DNA from: an uncultured Acidobacteriota bacterium | GTDB lineage: Bacteria; Acidobacteriota; Vicinamibacteria; Vicinamibacterales; SCN-69-37 | Length of the DNA: 64,000 nucleotides | Direction of reading: 5' to 3' | NCBI GenBank assembly: GCA_963730485.1 | Contig: CAVSRY010000009.1 | Location: forward strand, 9,214-73,213 | Part shown: in pieces, positions 10,408-61,611 of the stretch | How positions within the stretch are numbered: the stretch's first letter is position 1 | Layout of the letters: every line of letters starts with the position of its first letter | Position numbers and translations under genes: made by a program | The notes under the pieces: model-generated | What the model was told of the DNA's origin: nothing | The model's input: only the letters and a program-made list of their open reading frames with translations | Database searches by the model: none

Positions 10408-10462
10408 AGAACGTTCCAAGGTTCCAGCGTTCCTCGTTCCACGGTTCTGGTTCAGGTTCTAG
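10408..10462. repeat. single-arm degenerate heptad array, word (C)GTTCCA
   Basis: gaacgttcca aggttcca gcgttcct cgttcca cggttct ggttcag gttctag. This is the same word family as the left arm of the 15963 hairpin, but no inverted partner is nearby. Confidence 0.8.
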
Positions 10463-10471
10463 GTTTGACGA

Positions 10472-15953: not shown

Positions 15954-15962
15954 GGTACGACA

Positions 15963-16091
15963 GGGTTCCACGGTTCCAGGTTCCAGGTTCCAGGGTTCTG
16001 GTTCAGGGTTCAACGTTCTGGGTTCAGTGTCCTCGCGCGTGAACCGTGAACCGGGAACCGTGGAACCCTGGAACCCTGGAACCCTGGAACC
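15963..16091. repeat. heptad-repeat hairpin, word GGTTCCA / TGGAACC
   Basis: The left arm 15963-16027 has about 9 units (gggttcca cggttcca ggttcca ggttcca gggttct ggttcag ...). The loop is tgtcctcgcgcg. The right arm 16040-16091 has about 7 units (tgaaccg tgaaccg ggaaccg tggaaccc x3 tggaaccg). Confidence 0.9.
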
Positions 16092-16097
16092 GCTACG

Positions 16098-21247: not shown

Positions 21248-21647
21248 TCAGTCGTCGTCTGGACGACGCGCGCGGTGCTTCTTCGCGGCGCCGCGGTGTT
21301 TCTTCTCAGTCAATCGACGCTCGCGCGCGGCAGTCGTCGGCTTGGTCGGCCTGACGCCGGCGCGGACGTCTGCTCGCGCTCTGAATGAGCGCGTCGAGCC
21401 GCGCCCGCGCCGCCTCCCTATTTGCCGCCTGCGTCCGGTGCTCGCGCGCCTGCACGATGAGCACGTCGTCGGTCGTCATCCGGCTCCCCGCCAGCTGCCG
21501 AAGACGCGCTTTCACGTCGTCCGCCAGCGTCGACCGCGCCACGTCGTAGCGCAACTCCACGGCCGTCGACACCTTGTTGACGTTCTGGCCGCCCGGGCCG
21601 GAGGAGCGGATGAAGTGTTCCGTAATGAGAGAGGCGTCGGTAGCCAT
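21248..21647 (-). CDS. arfB: alternative ribosome-rescue factor ArfB (peptidyl-tRNA hydrolase, GGQ); frame break ~21360
   Basis: MATDASLITEHFIRSSGPGGQNVNKVSTAVELRYDV.... The basic tail RPTKPTTAARERRLTEKKHRGAAKKHRARRPDDD* is recovered in another frame, with its stop at 21248. Confidence 0.85.
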
Positions 21648-21685
21648 TTGCTATTGATTATTGGCAATTTGCTATTTGCGGATTG
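21648..21685. repeat. left terminal inverted repeat (TTGCTAT-type heptads) of the four-helix-bundle cassette
   Basis: The reverse complement of ttgctattgattattggcaatttgctatttgcggattg matches 22208-22245 at 33/38 positions without gaps (hand alignment). The heptad array continues to about 21710. Confidence 0.8.
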
Positions 21686-21807
21686 AACATTTTGACATTT
21701 GTTATTGCGGGGAGTGGCAGGAATTGGAAGCGATTCCTCGTTTCGGCAAGGTTCTCAGCTACCGTCTGCTGCCATGACATGGCAAGAGGCTTGCTCCGCT
21801 GACCGTC

Positions 21808-22199
21808 GTGAATGCACAGGAACTCCGAGATCGATCGGCAACGTATGCCGCTGCAGTGTCGCGGTTCTCTCGGCCTCTGCTGACTTCACTAGCCAGCCGT
21901 GATGCCGCGTTGCCAGGTGTCCCGCGCCGCAGCCTCGGCCGCGGCAAACTATCGCTCCGCATGTGTTGCCAGGTCGCATGCCGAGTTCCGCGCCAAGCTC
22001 GGCATCGCGCTCGAAGAATGTGACGAGAGCCTCTATTGGCTGGAATTTCTCAGGGACTCAGAACTGTCAAACGGAGACGGACTCGCCAAGCTGCTCAAGG
22101 AAGGAAAGCGAACTCGCGAAGATACTGGCCGCCTCGAAGCGAACTAGTGCGCGGCGTGCACAAGCGGCGAGACGGTTTCGCCCTCGCAATAGCCAATGA
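21808..22199 (+). CDS. four-helix-bundle protein (23S rRNA intervening-sequence protein family, TIGR02436-like); 2 frame breaks
   Basis: ...AQELRDRSATYAAAVSRFSRPLL... / ...QVSRAAASAAANYRSACVARSHAEFRAKLGIALEECDESLYWLEFLRDSEL... / ...ELAKILAASKRT.... These are the family's characteristic ANYRAA..ArS..EF..KlgI..EE.DEs.yWLe pattern. Assembled from ORFs 21808-, 21899- and 21963-22199. Confidence 0.75.
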
Positions 22200-22267
22200 C
22201 CAATAACAAATCCACCAATAGCAAATAGCCAATAACCAATAGCAATTGGCGATTGGCTATCGGGCTA

Positions 22268-22273
<6 letters not shown>
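22186..22273. repeat. right CAATAGC-type heptad array (contains the right terminal inverted repeat 22208-22245) ending in a local hairpin over the carB stop
   Basis: gcaatag ccaatga ccaataa caaatcc accaata gcaaata gccaata accaata gcaattg gcgattg gctatcg ggctatt agccc. The word orientation flips at about 22245. gggcta-t-tagccc spans the carB TAA. Confidence 0.8.
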
Positions 22274-25529
<3,256 letters not shown>

Positions 25530-25536
25530 GTGCAAT

Positions 25537-26903: not shown

Positions 26904-28774
26904 TTATTCAACCGCGCGCAGCGTCGTCGTCAGCGCCGCGGTACGTCCCGCGTCCACGCGCACACGACCCGTCGCGGACCGGTATCCGCCAAGTTCCAAT
27001 GTGACCTGATGATCGCCCGGTCCGACGTCGGCCAACCGCAATGGCGCAAGGCCGACGAACCGGCCGTCCACGATGACGCGCGCGCCGCGCGGACGCGAGT
27101 CTACATCGATTGCGCCGCGTGTGGAGGTGCTCGCCACGGTTGGCGTCGATTCCAAGCCCGGCGCGAGCGTGACATCGAGCGTCCGGACGGGCGCCGTCGG
27201 CGCGAATCGTCACACGCTCGGTGCGCGGGACATGGCCGGGACGAGCCACGCGCACGGCGTACGTGCCGGGCGCCAGGCCCTTCGCCACGACCGGGGTCTC
27301 GCCGAAGTGCCGGCCGTCAATCGTCACGAGCGCGCCGGACGGCTGAGATCGCACGACAAGGCGGCCAGCGGCGACAGCCGGCCTGGCGTCACGTGCGGCG
27401 GGCGGGTCAGACCGCTCCCGTTCCGCTGGTGCGACCGGCGGCGTCACTGGAGCGGGGGTCGGCGCCGGTGCGGGCCTCGGCGCGTCCGTCTCGGCAGGGG
27501 GCGCGGGCTCGGGCTGAACGCGGCACCCGGGCGACGATACTCGTGGGCTCGGCGGCCGGTTGGACGGGCGCGGCGAACCAGGTCCGCGCGACCAAGAGCC
27601 CTCCACCGACGCCAAACAGCAGACCCGCCGCGGCATAGACGAGCGTCTTCACCAGCACCGCTGAACGGCGGGGCTGCGGAGTGGCGGCGAGTGTCGAAGA
27701 TACCCGCCGGCACTTCGTAGGACGGAGATGCGAGCGCCGTGTCGAGCCACTCGTGTGCCTGCGCCGCTGCCGGCACGATCATCGCACGTGAGCGAGTCTC
27801 GATGGGTGCAATGACCGGCGCGACCTCGTCCGCCTTCGCGGTTGCCACCGGCGTGGCGACAACCGGCTCGACTGGCTCCTCCGGGCAGGAACTCGTCGGC
27901 TGACCGCGCCGCAAGAAAGACCTCGGAGGCCTTTTCCGCGTCTTCTCGAGAGAAAGACCTCCGAGGTCTTTCTTGCTCTCTACGATGGCCGGCGGCGACC
28001 GGCGCCTTGGACGGGGCCGTGGATGAGCGCTGGCCGACCTCGTCGAGCGCGCCAATCAGGGCGTCGGCTGAGCTGAAGCGCTGCTCAGGCGAATCGGCCA
28101 GGGCGGTCGACAGGACCTTCCGGAGCCGCACGCGATGCTCTGGCGCCATTTCCTTCGCGAACACGCCATCCTGCTCGCCACTTGCGGCCGGCCGCCGGCC
28201 GGTCAGCAGTTCGTGCGCAATCACGCCGAGCGAAAAAACGTCCGCGCGCGCGTCCCACGGCCGCACTACCCCGCTCCGGCGCGACGTACGGCCGTCGCAG
28301 CAGAGGATTGCTCATCCCCGCGGTTTCGAGCGCCTGGACGATGCCGAACCCGGTCACGCCCGCGAGCCCGTCTTCATCCTCGTGGACGAAGACGTCACGC
28401 GGATGCAACGCGCCGTGAAGGATTCCGGCTCCGCCCGCCGACACGAGGGTCGCCGCGAGCGGGCGGAGGATGCGGAGGGCCCGGTCGATCGGCATGGGCA
28501 TCGCGCGGCGAAGCACGATGTCGAGCGTCTCTCCAGGCTGGAACGCCATCACGACGTACGGCGTCGTGCCCTCGAGTCCGACGTCGAGCAGCGGAACGAT
28601 CAGCGGATGGACCGGCGGAGTGGACTGCAACCGGCGCAGCGCATCGGCAAGCCGGACGATTTGTTCAGGGAGGACCTCGAGCCGGAAGACCTTGATCGCA
28701 ACGAGCCGGTCACGCGGCGAATCGAACGCACGAAACACCGGGCCGAGAACGCCACTGCCGGTCTGGTGAAGCAC
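26904..28774 (-). CDS. Hanks-type pseudokinase - linker - TM - two PEGA domains (several frame breaks; could be two adjacent genes)
   Basis: The kinase fold reads GSGVLGPVF...VAIKVF...YVAPER...ADVFSLGVIAHELLTGRRP...RFSSA, but HRDLKPxN is replaced by HGALHPRD and DFG by GFG. A TM segment (LVKTLVYAAAGLLFGVGGGLLVA) follows. The PEGA domains read RLVVRSQPSGALVTIDGRHFGETPV...GTYAVRVARPGH and AIDVDSRPRGARVIVDGRFVGLAPL...GDHQVTLELGGY. Confidence 0.6.
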
Positions 28775-36159: not shown

Positions 36160-37282
36160 GCTCGCCGGGACTACTACGAAGTCCTCGGCGTCGAGCGGCG
36201 CGCGGACGAGCAGGAAATCAAGAGCGCCTACCGCAAGCAGGCCCTGAAATACCACCCGGATCGCAACGCCGGCGACAAGGAGGCCGAGGAACGCTTCAAG
36301 GAAGCGGCCGAAGCCTATGCCGTCCTCGGCGACGGGGAGAAGCGCGCGCGCTACGATCGCTTCGGCCACGCGGGGGTGCAGGGTGCCGGCGGCCAGGGTC
36401 CGGGCTTCAACGCGGACATCTTCGCGGACTTCTCGGACATCCTCGGCGACTTCTTCGGGTTCGGCGGCGGCCGTCGCGCGGGTCCGAGCCGAGGCGCCGA
36501 TCTTCGCTACGACCTCGAGATCTCGTTCGAAGAGTCCTTCGCGGGCACGGAGAGCACGATCCAGATCCCGCGCGAGGAGACGTGCGAGACGTGCAAGGGC
36601 ACGCGCGCCGCGAAGGGATCGTCAGCTGAGACCTGCCCTCAGTGCCGCGGCACCGGCCAACTGCGCTTCCAGCAGGGCTTCCTCGTCGTCGCCCGGCCGT
36701 GCGGCCAGTGCGGCGCGACCGGCCAGATCGTCCGCAATCCCTGCCCATCCTGCCGCGGCACCGGGCGCGTCGCCCGCGATCGGCGCGTGACGGTTCGGAT
36801 TCCGGCGGGGATCGATGACGGTCAGCGGCTCCGCCTGCACGGCGAAGGCGAGCACGGCGCGGTTGGTGGTCCGACCGGCGACCTCTACGTGGTCATCCAC
36901 GTCCGTCCGCATCCCGTGTTCCGCCGGGAAGAGGATGACCTCTTCGTCGAGGTACCGGTGCCCTATCCCACGATGGCGATGGGCGGATCGTTCAAGGTCG
37001 AGGGGCCCGCCGGGCCGCTCACCGTTGACGTGTCGGCGGGAACGCCGAGCGGTTCGGTCATCAGCGTTCCGCGGCAAGGGCATGCCGAGCGTGACCGGCC
37101 GCGGGCGCGGCAGCTTCCACGTGCGCGTCGTGGTCGACGTGCCCAAGAAGCTCAGCAAGGATCAGAAGAAGCTCGTCACCGAGCTCGGTCACACGATGCC
37201 CGTCGAGACCATCGAGGCCACGCCGCCCGATACCGACAGGGACAAGCCGTTTTTCGAGAAGGTGAAGGACCTGTTCGGCTAA
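36156..37282 (+). CDS. dnaJ: molecular chaperone DnaJ (frame breaks ~36170 and ~37080)
   Basis: GTG 36156 overlaps the grpE stop (GTGA). J domain: DYYEVLGVERRADEQEIKSAYRKQALKYHPDRN. G/F region. Four CxxCxG zinc motifs (CETCKGT, CPQCRGT, CGQCGAT, CPSCRGT). C-terminus ...KLSKDQKKLVTELG.... Confidence 0.9.
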
Positions 37283-37290
37283 GCCGATTC

Positions 37291-37441
37291 GCCATTTGTT
37301 ATTGGTTATTGGCTATTTGTTATTGCATTGGCATTTGCTATTGCCGGTACTGTGGTCGAGCCGTCGGCGCAACCGTCGCAATAGCAAATGACCAATGGCA
37401 CAATGCCCAATAACAAATAACCAATAACAAATAGCAAATGG
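37291..37441. repeat. heptad-repeat hairpin, word TTGNTAT / CAATAGC (ORF-less relative of the 21648/22208 inverted repeat)
   Basis: Left arm: gccattt gttattg gttattg gctattt gttattg cattg gcattt gctattg c. The loop is about 33 nt. Right arm: gcaatag caaatga ccaatgg cacaatg cccaata acaaata accaata acaaata gcaaatg g. It fills the dnaJ-prmA spacer, and the prmA ATG (37438) lies in the last heptad. Confidence 0.9.
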
Positions 37442-38327
37442 ATCGCCTGTTTCCCGCGCTGGAAATCGAGTGGCCCGCGCCGGTCGACTCGAGCGCATCG
37501 ATCAGTTGATCGCAGCGCTGGATGACGAAGGACCGACTGCGGTCGAAGAGCGCTCATTCGGGCGTTGCGGTGTTCTTTCCGAGCGATGACCGGCGCAATC
37601 GCGCGCTCGAGATCGCTCGCGCCTTCGCTCCAGAAGCCAGCGTCACGTGCCGTCTCCATCTCGGACGAAGCCTGGGCGGAACGCAGTCAAGCGTCGCTCA
37701 CCGCGATCCGTGTCGGCCGCGTTGTCGTGACGCCCCCGTGGGCGCGTGCGGATACGGCGTCGTCGGACGAAGACATCGTCGTCACGATCGTGCCGTCGAT
37801 GGGGTTCGGGACGGGCCATCACGCGTCCACGCGTCTCTGTCTGCAGCTGCTTCAATCCGTGGCGTCACGACGCCCAGTCGGTGCTCGACGTCGGCACCGG
37901 TTCGGGCGTCCTCGCCATTGCGGCCTGGCGTCTCGGGGCGGCACGTGTGATCGGAATCGATGTCGATGCCGACGCTCTGACATCCGCTCGCGAAAACGTC
38001 GAGCTCAACGGCGCGGACGCGGCGGTGGAACTGCAGGTCGTCGATCTCGCTGACGCCTCGGACCAGTTCGGCGGCGGCTTCGACCTCGTCCTCGCGAACC
38101 TCACCGGCGCGATGCTCGAGCGGTTTGCGTCCGCGCTCGGATCGCTCGTCGCGCCAGGCGGGTCGCTCATCGTCAGCGGGTTTCAAATCGGAGAGGACGA
38201 CAACGTGCTGCGGGCATTCGAAGGCGCGCGGTTCACGATGTCGGATCGTGGTGATGAGGATGGTTGGGTGGCGTTGCGCCTTTCAGGCCCCAGGCCTCAA
38301 GACTCAAGCCCCAAGCCTCGCGCCTAG
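37438..38327 (+). CDS. prmA: ribosomal protein L11 methyltransferase (at least 3 frame breaks)
   Basis: ...IRVGRVVVTPPW...IVVTIVPSMGFGTGHHASTRLCLQLL...VLDVGTGSGVLAIAAWRLGAARVIGIDVD...NVELNG.... The last ~13 codons ([13 protein letters not shown]) are translated heptad repeat. Confidence 0.8.
38281..38320. repeat. single-arm heptad array, word (A)AGACTC/AGCCCCA (same family as 2159 and 41571)
   Basis: ggcccca ggcctca agactca agcccca agcctcg cgcc. It lies inside the 3' end of the prmA ORF and abuts the convergent rsmE stop. Confidence 0.75.
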
Positions 38328-41172: not shown

Positions 41173-41587
41173 ATGCTCAGCCGGCGCGAGTTGAGCCGCG
41201 CCGAGCTCACCACCAAGCTGATCGATCGCGGCTTCGCGTCGCGACGAGGTCGACGCCGCGGTCGAACGCCTCGCCGACAACCGTTCGGTGGACGACCGCC
41301 GGGCGGCCTTTGCGCACGTGCGCACCGCCAGCCGGCTGAAGGGCCGCGGGCGGCTGCGCATTCAGCGCGAGCTCGAAGCGCGCGGCTTCTCGCGCGAACT
41401 GACCCGCGAGGCCCTCGCCGAATTCCGCCGGACGAGGACGTCAACGCCATCAAACGGTTCATCGAGCGAAAGAGCCGGACCATCGACGACTCGCCCGCAG
41501 GCCGACGCCGGCTGTTCAATCAGCTTGCTGAGGCGGGGCTTCTCATCGGCGATGATTGCGAAAGTCTTAAAGAGTCTTGGGTCTTGA
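41173..41587 (+). CDS. recX: recombination regulator RecX (at least 2 frame breaks; N-terminus may extend upstream)
   Basis: ...[23 protein letters not shown]...[35 protein letters not shown]...[11 protein letters not shown]...[20 protein letters not shown]. The last codons lie in the following hairpin arm. Confidence 0.75.
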
Positions 41588-41662
41588 GTCTTGGGTCTTG
41601 GGCTGCCTGGCCCGGCCGATGCTCCGGTATCGACCCAAGCCGCAAGACTCGAGCCCCAAGCC
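41571..41662. repeat. heptad-repeat hairpin, word GGGTCTT / AAGACCC
   Basis: Left arm: agagtct tgggtct tgagtct tgggtct tgggc. The loop is about 28 nt. Right arm: gacccaa gccgcaa gactcga gccccaa gcc. It lies between the recX stop (41587) and the alaS ATG (41683). Confidence 0.9.
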
Positions 41663-44413: not shown

Positions 44414-44559
44414 GCGATTGGGGATTGAATTGATGAGATTGAGGGATTCGGTGATTGCGGATCGAGATCGGTCGGAAGGCCGGTGGGTTTCAATCCTCAA
44501 TCCGCAATCGCCCGATCATCAATGCAATCATCAATTTCAAATTACAAATCCTCAATTCC
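44414..44559. repeat. heptad-repeat hairpin, word GATTGNN / NNCAATC
   Basis: Left arm: gcgattg gggattg aattgat gagattg agggatt cggtgattg cggatcg. The loop contains ggaaggccggtggg. Right arm: tcaatcc tcaatcc gcaatcg cccgatc atcaatg caatcat caatttc aaattac aaatcct caattcc. Arm pairing is imperfect. Confidence 0.75.
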
Positions 44560-45344: not shown

Positions 45345-45346
45345 GA

Positions 45347-45401
45347 AAAGGGGTCGGGACGCTTTTTACGTCGAACGTAAAAAGCGTCCCGACCCCTTTT
45401 T
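45347..45401. terminator. bidirectional Rho-independent terminator (perfect 25-bp palindrome with A/T tracts on both sides)
   Basis: aaaaggggtcgggacgctttttacg tcgaa cgtaaaaagcgtcccgaccccttttt, between convergent rpsT and holA. Confidence 0.9.
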
Positions 45402-56420: not shown

Positions 56421-56489
56421 CCTTTCAGCGCCCGCTTGAACGGCTGGCTTTCAGCGCCGCTTCAACGGCTCGCTTTCAGCGCCGCGACC
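56421..56489. repeat. about 25-nt direct tandem repeat x2.6 spanning the etfA stop codon
   Basis: cctttcagcgcccgcttgaacggctgg / ctttcagcgccgcttcaacggctcg / ctttcagcgccgcgacc. The last copies encode the etfA C-terminus (AALKASR*) on the minus strand. Confidence 0.8.
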
Positions 56490-61472: not shown

Positions 61473-61486
61473 GGGTGGACATGGGA

Positions 61487-61605
61487 CAAGTTAGAAGTTA
61501 GAAGCCAGAAGTCAGAAGTGACTGACGGCCTTCGGCCGTGCATGTCTTCTCGGAACCGCAAGTGGCCAGTAGCTTCTGACTTCTAACTTCTAACTTCGAA
61601 CTTGT
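61487..61605. repeat. heptad-repeat hairpin, word AGAAGTN / NACTTCT, with an internal GGCC-TTCG-GGCC mini-hairpin
   Basis: Left arm: caagtt agaagtt agaagcc agaagtc agaagtg actg. The centre contains acggccttcggccgt. Right arm: cagtagc ttctgac ttctaac ttctaac ttcgaac ttg. It fills the rpmF-plsX spacer. Confidence 0.9.
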
Positions 61606-61611
61606 CGGAGC

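Follow-up and report, generated by a model that had tools for sequence, protein, structure and literature searches.

Why should a small four-helix-bundle gene, of the family named after the intervening sequences (IVS) of 23S rRNA, lie between two inverted arrays of 7-nt units in a spacer between the protein-coding genes arfB and carB? This question is raised by a contig of an uncultured Acidobacteriota bacterium (CAVSRY010000009.1), of which a stretch of 64,000 nt was analysed (hereafter the window, to whose positions all coordinates refer). The answer favoured here, with moderate confidence, is that the locus is an IVS-type gene cassette residing outside rRNA: an Avd-like four-helix-bundle gene of about 390 nt, placed between inverted 7-nt arrays and looped out as an RNase III substrate.

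The arfB-carB spacer is 620 nt long and consists of a left 7-nt array (21643-21712), an interior of 469 nt and a right array (22182-22250) reverse-complementary to the left. The left arm adjoins the start codon (CAT at 21645-21647) of arfB, which lies on the minus strand (21306-21647; NF006718, 126 bits); the other neighbour is the 3' end of carB, with its stop codon at 22268, also on the minus strand. Two A+T-rich islands, at 21648-21720 (G+C 0.38) and 22181-22267 (G+C 0.44), stand out from a window G+C content of 66.6%. The preliminary description of this DNA had aligned the reverse complement of 21648-21685 with 22208-22245 at 33 of 38 positions, ungapped, and this match, its heptad arms and its coordinates were confirmed exactly. 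A repeat finder lengthened the match to 42 nt at 88% (21643-21684 / 22209-22250), and when one indel is allowed the complementarity of the arms extends over about 70 nt (21643-21712 with 22182-22250), with 55 Watson-Crick pairs. Minimum-free-energy and centroid folds of both strands predict that the arms pair end to end. Among the window inverted repeats with arms at most 700 nt apart, the cassette ranks second in length, and it is the only one in the window of at least 40 nt and more than 80% complementarity with a loop above 100 nt. Shuffling the order of the 7-nt units of the right arm gave a best 38-nt block of 25.4 +/- 2.0 matches and reached 33 or more in 2 of 1000 shuffles; the arm pairing therefore exceeds word-level similarity. 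Heptad units are the only direct repeats in 21400-22500. Consensus scans returned no sigma-70-type promoter in the cassette region and no Rho-independent terminator in 21500-22400, where the arms are A+T-rich (G+C 0.38-0.44), and no Rfam RNA family was matched in the window.

Between the arms lies one gene of PF05635/TIGR02436, as had been proposed, although here it is split over three frames by one-nucleotide insertions at 21909 (G) and 22109 (C), called against the intact orthologue of locus L162 (protein P0121, 129 aa, 93.3% DNA identity). The three-frame reconstruction scores 48.5 bits with PF05635 (cutoff 33.8) and 62.5 bits with TIGR02436 (cutoff 24; profile positions 4-107 of 109). A Pfam search of the cassette loop found PF05635 as the sole domain and no other family-supported open reading frame (ORF), a six-frame hidden Markov model search found no second PF05635/TIGR02436 copy in the 64-kb window, and PADLOC and PHROGs scans gave no match. 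The two insertions are probably assembly errors and not decay, since carB and dnaJ are likewise frameshifted here and carB is intact (1084 aa) in a relative. Specifically, carB (22268-25535) is broken across at least five ORFs and dnaJ (36376-37282) across two, while arfB (21306-21647) is without its basic C-terminal tail; the window assembly appears to contain frequent one-nucleotide indel errors, so that frameshifts here are not to be taken as pseudogenes. A pseudogene reading of the cassette was rejected as the default, given the intact 93%-identical orthologue and the broken carB and dnaJ of the same window. Intact orthologues are P0121 and P0001, and the ORF is under purifying selection (pN/pS 0.25 against locus L001, at pS 0.55).

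An AlphaFold (AF2) model of the protein has four helices at a predicted local distance difference test score (pLDDT) of 96.6. Foldseek placed the model closest to 2RLD (BT_0352; template modelling score, TM, 0.76-0.90) and 2GSC (Xcc0516; TMt about 0.8), and more distantly to Avd (4DWL) and the ribonucleoprotein of a diversity-generating retroelement (DGR; 8UB7), with TMt of 0.65-0.75; sequence similarity to Avd was below detection in a profile search against PDB. Xcc0516 forms a homopentameric toroid, as cited in PMC4990558, and the five chains of 2RLD imply the same. The homology of the four-helix-bundle fold with Avd, a relationship noted in PMC10053308, sets the protein beside DGRs, whereas no reverse transcriptase or template/variable repeat pair accompanies the gene (the immediate neighbours are arfB and carB, in orthologous contigs alike, and repeats were checked over 21400-22500). 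By analogy with Avd, the protein most likely binds nucleic acid. The family is very large, a single-sequence search having returned 4341 clusters at 50% identity. To our knowledge, structures of PF05635 members have been solved while no function is known outside DGRs.

The cassette is not peculiar to the window. The order comEC - outer membrane protein (OMP) - arfB - gene - carB was found in a JGI contig (P0001, 86% identity, intact), in L162, in L163 (right side only) and in L001 (79% identity). As the cassette occupies the identical arfB-carB site down to 79% protein identity, it is old in this lineage, and it would be a vertically inherited resident and not a recent copy. Arms are present in all orthologous loci; their complementarity is kept, while their length and word vary. 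Several units are lost in L163, and the L001 arms carry the word ATTGGTC/GACCAAT, which differs from that of the window, yet each of the two loci keeps 55 Watson-Crick pairs. The inner half of the left arm (ATTTGCGG-ATTGAA-ATTTTGACATT-GT-ATTGC) is kept in four of four orthologous loci (window, L162, L163, L001). The non-repetitive region between left arm and start codon (21713-21807) may be a promoter or operator; its palindrome, TGCCATG-a-CATGGCA at 21770-21784, with a central base between two 7-nt arms, is kept in L162 and L163 and reduced to GCCATGGC in L001. Empty sites were sought by a metagenome scan with the CarB C-terminus; in the 80 loci obtained, neither arfB nor the gene lay within 2.5 kb. 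Since both are missing downstream of carB in these distant relatives (CarB 48-87% identity), arfB-carB synteny is absent and none of them counts as a true empty site. In several of the gene-less relatives, the carB stop codon is immediately followed by a heptad or octad hairpin without an ORF (L082, CACGAAG; L084, CACAAAG; L092, GCAAGGAC).

A sister hairpin without an ORF lies elsewhere in the window (Table 1), and the earlier claim that the gene sits in the loop of a long stem built from the same heptad arms was confirmed by alignment, the arms being copies of one another. The right arms agree at 22 of 25 positions (22184-22208 against 37376-37400) and at 30 of 34 (22215-22248 against 37407-37440), the left arms at 21 of 23 and 12 of 12 with the unit variants in identical order, and the 30-nt sister loop (37347-37376) has no similarity to the cassette interior. 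The arms also match crosswise: the cassette left arm agrees with the sister right arm at 29 of 38 positions, nearly as well as with its own partner, and the cassette right arm pairs equally with the sister left arm and with its own (gapped score 63 for both; ungapped, 32/38 against 33/38). This cross-matching reflects homologous copies and not chance. The earlier caveat that 33 of 38 might be no better than the match of any two such arrays is thus answered by the shuffles, although the sister arms do match nearly as well, through homology. The sister hairpin is found at the orthologous dnaJ-prmA site in L180 (on the same contig as L001) and L181, where its arms are almost invariant and its loop is not conserved; it is therefore old and sequence-constrained. 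Concerted evolution of the two elements was not seen: in the L001 genome the cassette arms have diverged to ATTGGTC, while the dnaJ hairpin still reads ATTGGYT/ATTTGTT, with no co-variation, and the hairpin is kept in L180 and L181.

Table 1. Window positions of the cassette features and of the sister hairpin.
Feature	Position	Strand	Remarks
Left (5') arm	21643..21712		about ten degenerate 7-nt units (ATTTGCT / ATTGATT / ATTGGCA ...); best period 7
5' inner region, non-repetitive	21713..21807	+	between left arm and start codon; small GGAAT...ATTCC hairpin and 7-1-7 palindrome TGCCATGaCATGGCA
Four-helix-bundle gene (PF05635 / TIGR02436, Avd-like fold)	21808..22199	+	GTG start; last codons (…RPRNSQ, then stop) extend into right arm
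Right (3') arm	22182..22250		complementary array (CAATAGC / CAATGAC / CAATAAC ...); pairs with left arm
Local 16-bp hairpin	22225..22260		outer end of right arm and following 16 nt (ATAGCCAATAACCAAT agca ATTGGCGATTGGCTAT)
Sister hairpin, left arm	37291..37346		dnaJ-prmA spacer; homologous to cassette left arm
Sister hairpin, right arm	37377..37441		about 85-88% identical to cassette right arm

The small hairpin at the outer end of the right arm stands 8 nt from the carB stop codon and offers that part of the arm an alternative pairing partner.

The layout proved to be general across the protein family. A family profile scan with one genome per species yielded at least 80 loci, a broad sample lying at 36-56% identity to the query instead of among its nearest relatives, in which the 80 loci listed represent at least ten phyla (Acidobacteriota, Bacteroidota, Verrucomicrobiota, Planctomycetota, Chloroflexota, Patescibacteria, Desulfobacterota, Nitrospirota, WOR-3, Bipolaricaulota and others). 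The 300 nt upstream were compared with the 300 nt downstream for inverted repeats, the controls having the same geometry shifted within the same loci (n=406). Among the loci listed, the best flanking inverted repeat scores 42 in the median, whereas the controls average 19.3 and have their 95th percentile at 24; 70 of the 80 lie above that percentile, with units of 7 or 8 nt. Autocorrelation maxima at lags of 7, 8 and 14 are confined to the flanks; the best arm period is 7 in 46 loci and 8 in 24. The median arm is 34 nt long, and in 69 of 70 loci the arms reach at least 22 nt, the size of RNase III substrates. They bracket the ORF tightly, ending about 41 nt before the gene and resuming about 18 nt after it. 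Period-7 arrays number 174 per 100 kb within 250 nt of family genes, 7.7 elsewhere in those loci and 0.8 in control loci, the density near family genes being about 200-fold that of the controls. The 80 loci listed gave no match to 23S rDNA. Together with 13 of 13 plasmid-borne family genes examined, all within 7-nt arrays and mostly inverted pairs, these results bear out the prediction that family genes are systematically flanked by inverted short-repeat arrays. The arrays also explain mis-called family genes whose N- or C-terminal extensions read through the repeats.

The words themselves follow looser rules. The 5' arm usually consists of (G)ATT followed by 3-4 variable bases and is G+T-rich (mean 0.63) in this subfamily; the bias does not come from gene orientation, since the reverse complement of the hairpin has the same polarity. 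A code between protein and word was not found among these loci: the two correlate only above about 70% protein identity, as co-inheritance, and one word, such as GATTGCG, can flank proteins from different phyla that are only 50-60% identical. The related cassettes of L036 and L064 have a matching word. As a separate observation, L173 holds a sequence resembling signal recognition particle RNA (about 2330-2440; …CCAGGACCGGAAGGTAGCAAGGGTAG…, with a T-run at its end) directly upstream of its four-helix-bundle gene, which is flanked by a repeat of about 22 nt (TAATATTTTGGCAGGTAATATT) in place of heptads.

Annotated replicons provide the clearest view of private words. The 239-kb Nostoc flagelliforme plasmid pNFSY06 carries five genes annotated as "four helix bundle protein", each between inverted arrays of 4-5 units that are near-perfect in four of the five; at the fifth, two unit variants are mixed and the 3' side is more complex. 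Each gene has its own word (CAGGGAG, AAAATTC, GCAATTC, TAATTCG and GATTGGA/GCA). Paralogues 3 and 4, about 70% identical, differ as AATTCGC against AATTCGT in every unit of both arms; such a change cannot be independent point mutation, and array turnover is therefore coordinated between the arms. The plasmid has 41 period-7 arrays, and 13 of the roughly 29 that flank no family gene reuse one of the five cassette words, including two ORF-less hairpins with loops of about 130 nt, which show neither mutual similarity nor coding potential. Eight further plasmid genes lie in 7-nt arrays (Chlorohelix, Bernardetia, Gloeocapsa, Planktothrix, Dolichospermum, N. punctiforme, A. cylindrica and Treponema). 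Among GTDB loci, L005, L062 and L030 have ORF-less hairpins or arrays with the arms or word of their own cassette within 3 kb; overall, 5 of 26 ORF-less arrays share their word with the cassette nearby, whereas foreign cassettes match at 0.7-3% (p about 0.001). In L005 the match covers 14 non-periodic inner bases, up to the ribosome-binding region of the cassette. Words are also shared between replicons: TAATTCG by the Dolichospermum cassette and the fourth of pNFSY06, and GATTTTA by those of Gloeocapsa and Chlorohelix, inside the same operon.

Further repeat modules were noted on the same and other contigs. ORF-less hairpins or arrays with a CAACGTT/CAACATC-type word occur in L044 (851-953; a Verrucomicrobiota metagenome-assembled genome, MAG) and L045 (110-151, 3328-3373 and 3935-3985; a Desulfobacterales MAG), where the nearby cassettes use other words. 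In the Chlorohelix plasmid (L187, 220-400 and 770-900) a module of about 100 nt, a GATTTTA/AATCCAAAATC hairpin, forms a direct repeat on both sides of the gene, an architecture of hairpin - ORF - hairpin unlike the usual arm - ORF - arm. On pNFSY06, a second module (…CCCAATACTGCTCGGTTAAGCATTTTTAACTCGG…) lies between GGGGAAA/CCCCTTT heptad arrays in two places (L183, 47120-47310; L185, 3430-3700) that have no four-helix-bundle gene.

The neighbours of the cassettes are informative as well. Of 15 annotated cassettes, about 10 lie inside an operon and share the direction of both neighbours. Three cassettes, among them those of the window and of a cas2/cas1 spacer, run antisense to the genes on either side. 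Where examined (for example, L165, Gloeocapsa and Dolichospermum), the arms touch the stop or start codons of the neighbours, which leaves no room for a private promoter or terminator. The host operons include defence systems (DUF1156-Swt1 HEPN twice, DISARM drmD-MmeI and cas2-cas1), in agreement with the 18 such genes reported inside cas loci (PMC3936711). The order DUF1156 - four-helix-bundle gene - Swt1-family HEPN, with the word GATTTTA/G, recurs in two phyla (401-769 in L187, the Chlorohelix plasmid, and L189, the Gloeocapsa plasmid); the cassette either spread together with this defence-like operon or functions as one of its parts. Cassettes were also observed in DISARM and CRISPR adaptation operons in Planktothrix (L190, drmD-MmeI) and Anabaena cylindrica (L193, antisense between cas2 and cas1), and about 6 kb upstream of MmeI/DISARM drmA on pNFSY06 (L184, 321-707). 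The family appears "CRISPR-linked" in large screens (PMC10910872, Fig. 6B legend; PMC3936711), which may be due to its arrays in repeat-based screens or to cassettes in CRISPR operons. For two proteins, identical copies of which were sampled on 13 and 18 contigs, neighbours, orientation and arrays never differed; the cassettes are therefore stable over short times. Likewise, 15 contigs (8 + 7 population samples of two cassettes) showed no polymorphism of unit number, orientation or copy number, and a search for recent transposition, as identical proteins in different contexts, found none.

The window itself holds at least five ORF-less heptad hairpins besides the cassette. Apart from the sister hairpin, at least four have arms of tandem 7-8-nt units (2160-2262, 15961-16092, 41572-41662 and 61485-61606), with the words TTGGGTC, GGTTCCA/GAACCGTG, GTCTTGG and AAGTTAG/CTTCTAA and G+C-rich loops of 20-45 nt, and single arrays lie at 10410-10465, 38283-38320 and 44490-44509. 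No four-helix-bundle gene in the window carries the words of these further hairpins. Two palindromes are not heptad-based and may be bidirectional terminators: a perfect one of 26 nt at 45346-45400 (AAAAGGGGTCGGGACGCTTTTTACGT / 3-nt loop) and one of 24 nt and 96% at 27911-27976 (GCAAGAAAGACCTCGGAGGCCTTT...). A 25-nt unit repeated 2.5 times at 92% identity (56422-56485; CTTTCAGCGCCGCTTCAACGGCTCG) bears no relation to the heptad arrays.

How, then, could such a cassette persist between arfB and carB? Once the spacer is transcribed, the arms would zip into a stem of about 70 bp and the cassette would be looped out of the host RNA. At the window locus, the most plausible setting would be a transcript reading through from carB to arfB, with the cassette in antisense. 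The stem could serve as a substrate of RNase III, by likeness to the ORF-bearing IVS of 23S rRNA. A cassette inserted between the genes of an operon or in a helix of rRNA would then do little harm, and sense copies would release a small mRNA. The arm repeats may arise by replication slippage, with selection or template switching keeping the arms complementary, a combination that would explain a one-base change in every unit of both arms. Looping-out would likewise explain how rRNA helices, operon spacers and defence loci can tolerate the cassette, why arms reach at least 22 nt in 69 of 70 loci and why sense copies can do without a promoter of their own.

The comparison with classical IVS is instructive. 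ORF-bearing IVS occur in the 23S rRNA of Leptospira, Coxiella burnetii and Brucella (Ralph and McClelland, 1993, as cited in PMC4990558); that of C. burnetii has a 28-bp terminal stem cut by RNase III and 2-3 tandem GACAGAT heptamers right upstream of the S23p start, in strain-variable copy number (PMC4990558). Alike are the PF05635 ORF, the size of the element (400-700 nt), the terminal inverted repeats that form a long stem around the ORF and, in Coxiella, the tandem heptamers immediately upstream of it. In contrast, the window cassette lies in a protein-gene spacer (carB-arfB), antisense to both neighbours, and not in helix 9, 25 or 45 of a 23S rRNA gene; its arms of about 70 nt consist of 7-nt units throughout, and RNase III cleavage, which has been shown for the IVS, is proposed for the cassette by likeness. 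The cassette is best filed as an addition to the known IVS kind, an S23p/Avd-like cassette outside rRNA with heptad-array arms.

Several observations weigh against looping-out at the RNA level. Processing by RNase III is an argument from analogy. The arm mismatches that are G:U-compatible number 77 in the sense and 72 in the antisense direction, with 273 others, so that neither strand has an excess; there is therefore no signature of pairing selected at the RNA level, and a DNA-level cause (quasi-palindrome correction, cruciforms or hairpins of single-stranded DNA) fits equally. Arm sequence, beyond complementarity, is conserved between relatives about 55% different at synonymous sites, which a pure "any stem will do" model does not predict. 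As the window gene is antisense to both neighbours, its expression needs a promoter of its own, and the scan found none. Furthermore, ORF-less arrays that reuse the word of a cassette are not explained by looping-out alone.

These last points bring in the strongest alternative, which is possible but clearly the less probable, namely a two-tier arrangement like that of RAYT/REPIN systems (reportedly the subject of work by Nunvar in 2010 and by Bertels and Rainey in 2011). Each protein would recognise the heptad word that flanks its own gene and, in trans, would bind, stabilise, regulate or propagate the ORF-less hairpins that carry this word. As in RAYT/REPIN systems, a single-copy gene is flanked by a hairpin-forming repeat that is also dispersed ORF-less in the genome (window, L005, L062 and L030), and the paralogues of one replicon, pNFSY06, each have their own repeat family, reused by 13 of about 29 other arrays. 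The preference of ORF-less arrays for the word of their own cassette (5 of 26), the conservation of arm sequence beyond the needs of pairing, the roughly tenfold excess of heptad arrays elsewhere in gene-carrying loci over control loci and the fold of Avd, which works in a nucleic-acid-protein complex, point the same way. The protein is nevertheless a four-helix bundle without HUH/Y1 transposase features or any catalytic or DNA-binding domain beyond the bundle (Pfam, PADLOC, PHROGs), and the units are tandem and 7-8 nt long instead of the 20-30-nt palindromes of repetitive extragenic palindromic (REP) elements. Word and protein correlate only above about 70% protein identity, the dnaJ hairpin did not co-vary when the L001 cassette arms drifted, and most other window heptad hairpins use unrelated words (TTGGGTC, GGTTCCA, AAGTCAG), although the 64 kb hold only one such gene. 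Evidence of mobility or recent copying is also wanting in the contexts sampled.

The preliminary description had cast the same relationship as an autonomous element and its miniature inverted-repeat transposable element (MITE). One half of this stands, in that ORF-bearing and ORF-less forms with a shared word do recur (L005, L062, L030, pNFSY06), and in the window and L005 the ORF-less copies share terminal sequences with the ORF-bearing element, as MITEs do with their parents. The other half, recent copying and mobility, is possible but found no sign in its favour in the contexts sampled: there is no transposase domain and no recognisable target-site duplication (which would be unreadable beside repetitive arms), copies are few, the neighbours are constant, and the cassette and its ORF-less copy are both old and orthologously conserved in relatives.

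It is unlikely, though conceivable for this one locus, that the arms pre-date the ORF. Heptad hairpins, one of them behind carB, would then be ordinary terminator- or REP-like structures of this lineage, whose loops a possibly mobile ORF enters by preference, much as it occupies loops of rRNA helices, the arms being target and not cargo. Such an order of events had been named beforehand as fatal to the cassette idea, and it is partly upheld by the gene-less relatives with a hairpin right after the carB stop codon (L082, L084, L092), to which may be added the five or more other ORF-less heptad hairpins of the window, the sister hairpin that shares arms but not loop and the 70-75 inverted heptamer pairs of Xanthomonas, for which no linked gene was described (PMC4692102). 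These relatives, however, lack arfB-carB synteny and provide no true empty site, and the family-wide rule is that arms and ORF belong together. The ORF-less copy of L005 shares non-periodic inner arm sequence up to the ribosome-binding region. Across replicons or genera, closely related cassettes retain their word (Dolichospermum and pNFSY06 #4; Gloeocapsa and Chlorohelix; L036 and L064), and the arms therefore travel with the ORF. The classical IVS, too, brings its own extended stem into an rRNA tetraloop (PMC4990558).

An explanation at the level of DNA, in which the arms act as a cruciform, a single-stranded hairpin, a G-quadruplex or a recombination substrate (for cassette inversion or deletion, or as a replication-linked structure) and RNA pairing is incidental, is improbable. 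It would suit the want of strand bias among the G:U-compatible mismatches, the symmetry of the complementarity and the one-base unit changes homogenised across both arms, which suggest template switching on DNA; a G-quadruplex role has moreover been proposed for GGGAATC arrays (PMC4692102). Nevertheless, neither orientation nor copy number varied in the 8 + 7 population samples of two cassettes, most words are too G-poor for quadruplexes, and arms set exactly between the stop and start codons of neighbours suit a role in the transcript. Chance, with two unrelated AT-rich simple repeats flanking a small gene, has a negligible claim: although 25-29 of 38 positions agree whichever two arrays of this word family are compared, it is refuted by the unit-order shuffle (2/1000), the inverted-repeat controls, the lag-7/8 autocorrelation, the array density and the same layout in 70 of 80 loci listed and 13 of 13 plasmid genes. 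The IVS-type cassette looped out of its host RNA remains the reading to be preferred.

Heptameric repeats of intergenic DNA are well represented in other bacteria, the cyanobacterial short tandemly repeated repetitive (STRR) sequences among them. Xanthomonas campestris has 186 GGGAATC arrays, 70 of them in inverted pairs, read as G-quadruplex formers, and GGGGA(C/T)T of Nostoc/Anabaena (PMC4692102) and TAACTGA of Beggiatoaceae (PMC4679880) are further examples. These repeats resemble the arrays described here in their 7-nt units near gene ends, their frequent convergent stem-loop pairs and a location conserved between relatives, and GGGAATC is the complement of the GATTNNN unit type dominant in the arms of the family. 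They have, however, been described with no linked gene and with suggested G-quadruplex or translational roles, whereas here the arrays are tied to one protein family and a cassette. In the supplementary table of PMC4692102, array #15 is placed between bccP (XCC0517) and XCC0516, the crystallised member of the family, whose start it overlaps. The same table places GGGAATC arrays beside prmA (XCC0512/0513) and groES/groEL; the sister hairpin of the window adjoins prmA too, and this shared adjacency may be coincidence. A literature search, partial in coverage, found no paper linking heptad or short tandem arrays to the PF05635 family, although an earlier description is possible. The Coxiella IVS heptamers and the GGGAATC array at XCC0516 are instances that went unnoticed in published data.

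The layout thus ties the "23S rRNA intervening-sequence protein" family to intergenic heptamers that have had no explanation; in a survey of 7,006 genomes, tandem heptamers were the most abundant intergenic periodic repeat, of unexplained function (bioRxiv 10.1101/309039). Tentatively, and with no more confidence than the two-tier arrangement deserves, S23p proteins may be trans-acting partners of intergenic 7-8-nt arrays and hairpins across prokaryotes, with one word per paralogue, so that hairpins, 23S IVS and the Xanthomonas and cyanobacterial arrays would form one protein-linked and possibly mobile repeat system. If true, this would explain the excess of heptamer repeats in bacterial intergenic DNA. 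The classical rRNA IVS, for its part, would become a special case of a far wider cassette, found also inside defence and CRISPR operons, and through the cassette there is a realistic prospect of approaching the wider question of the nature of intergenic heptamers.

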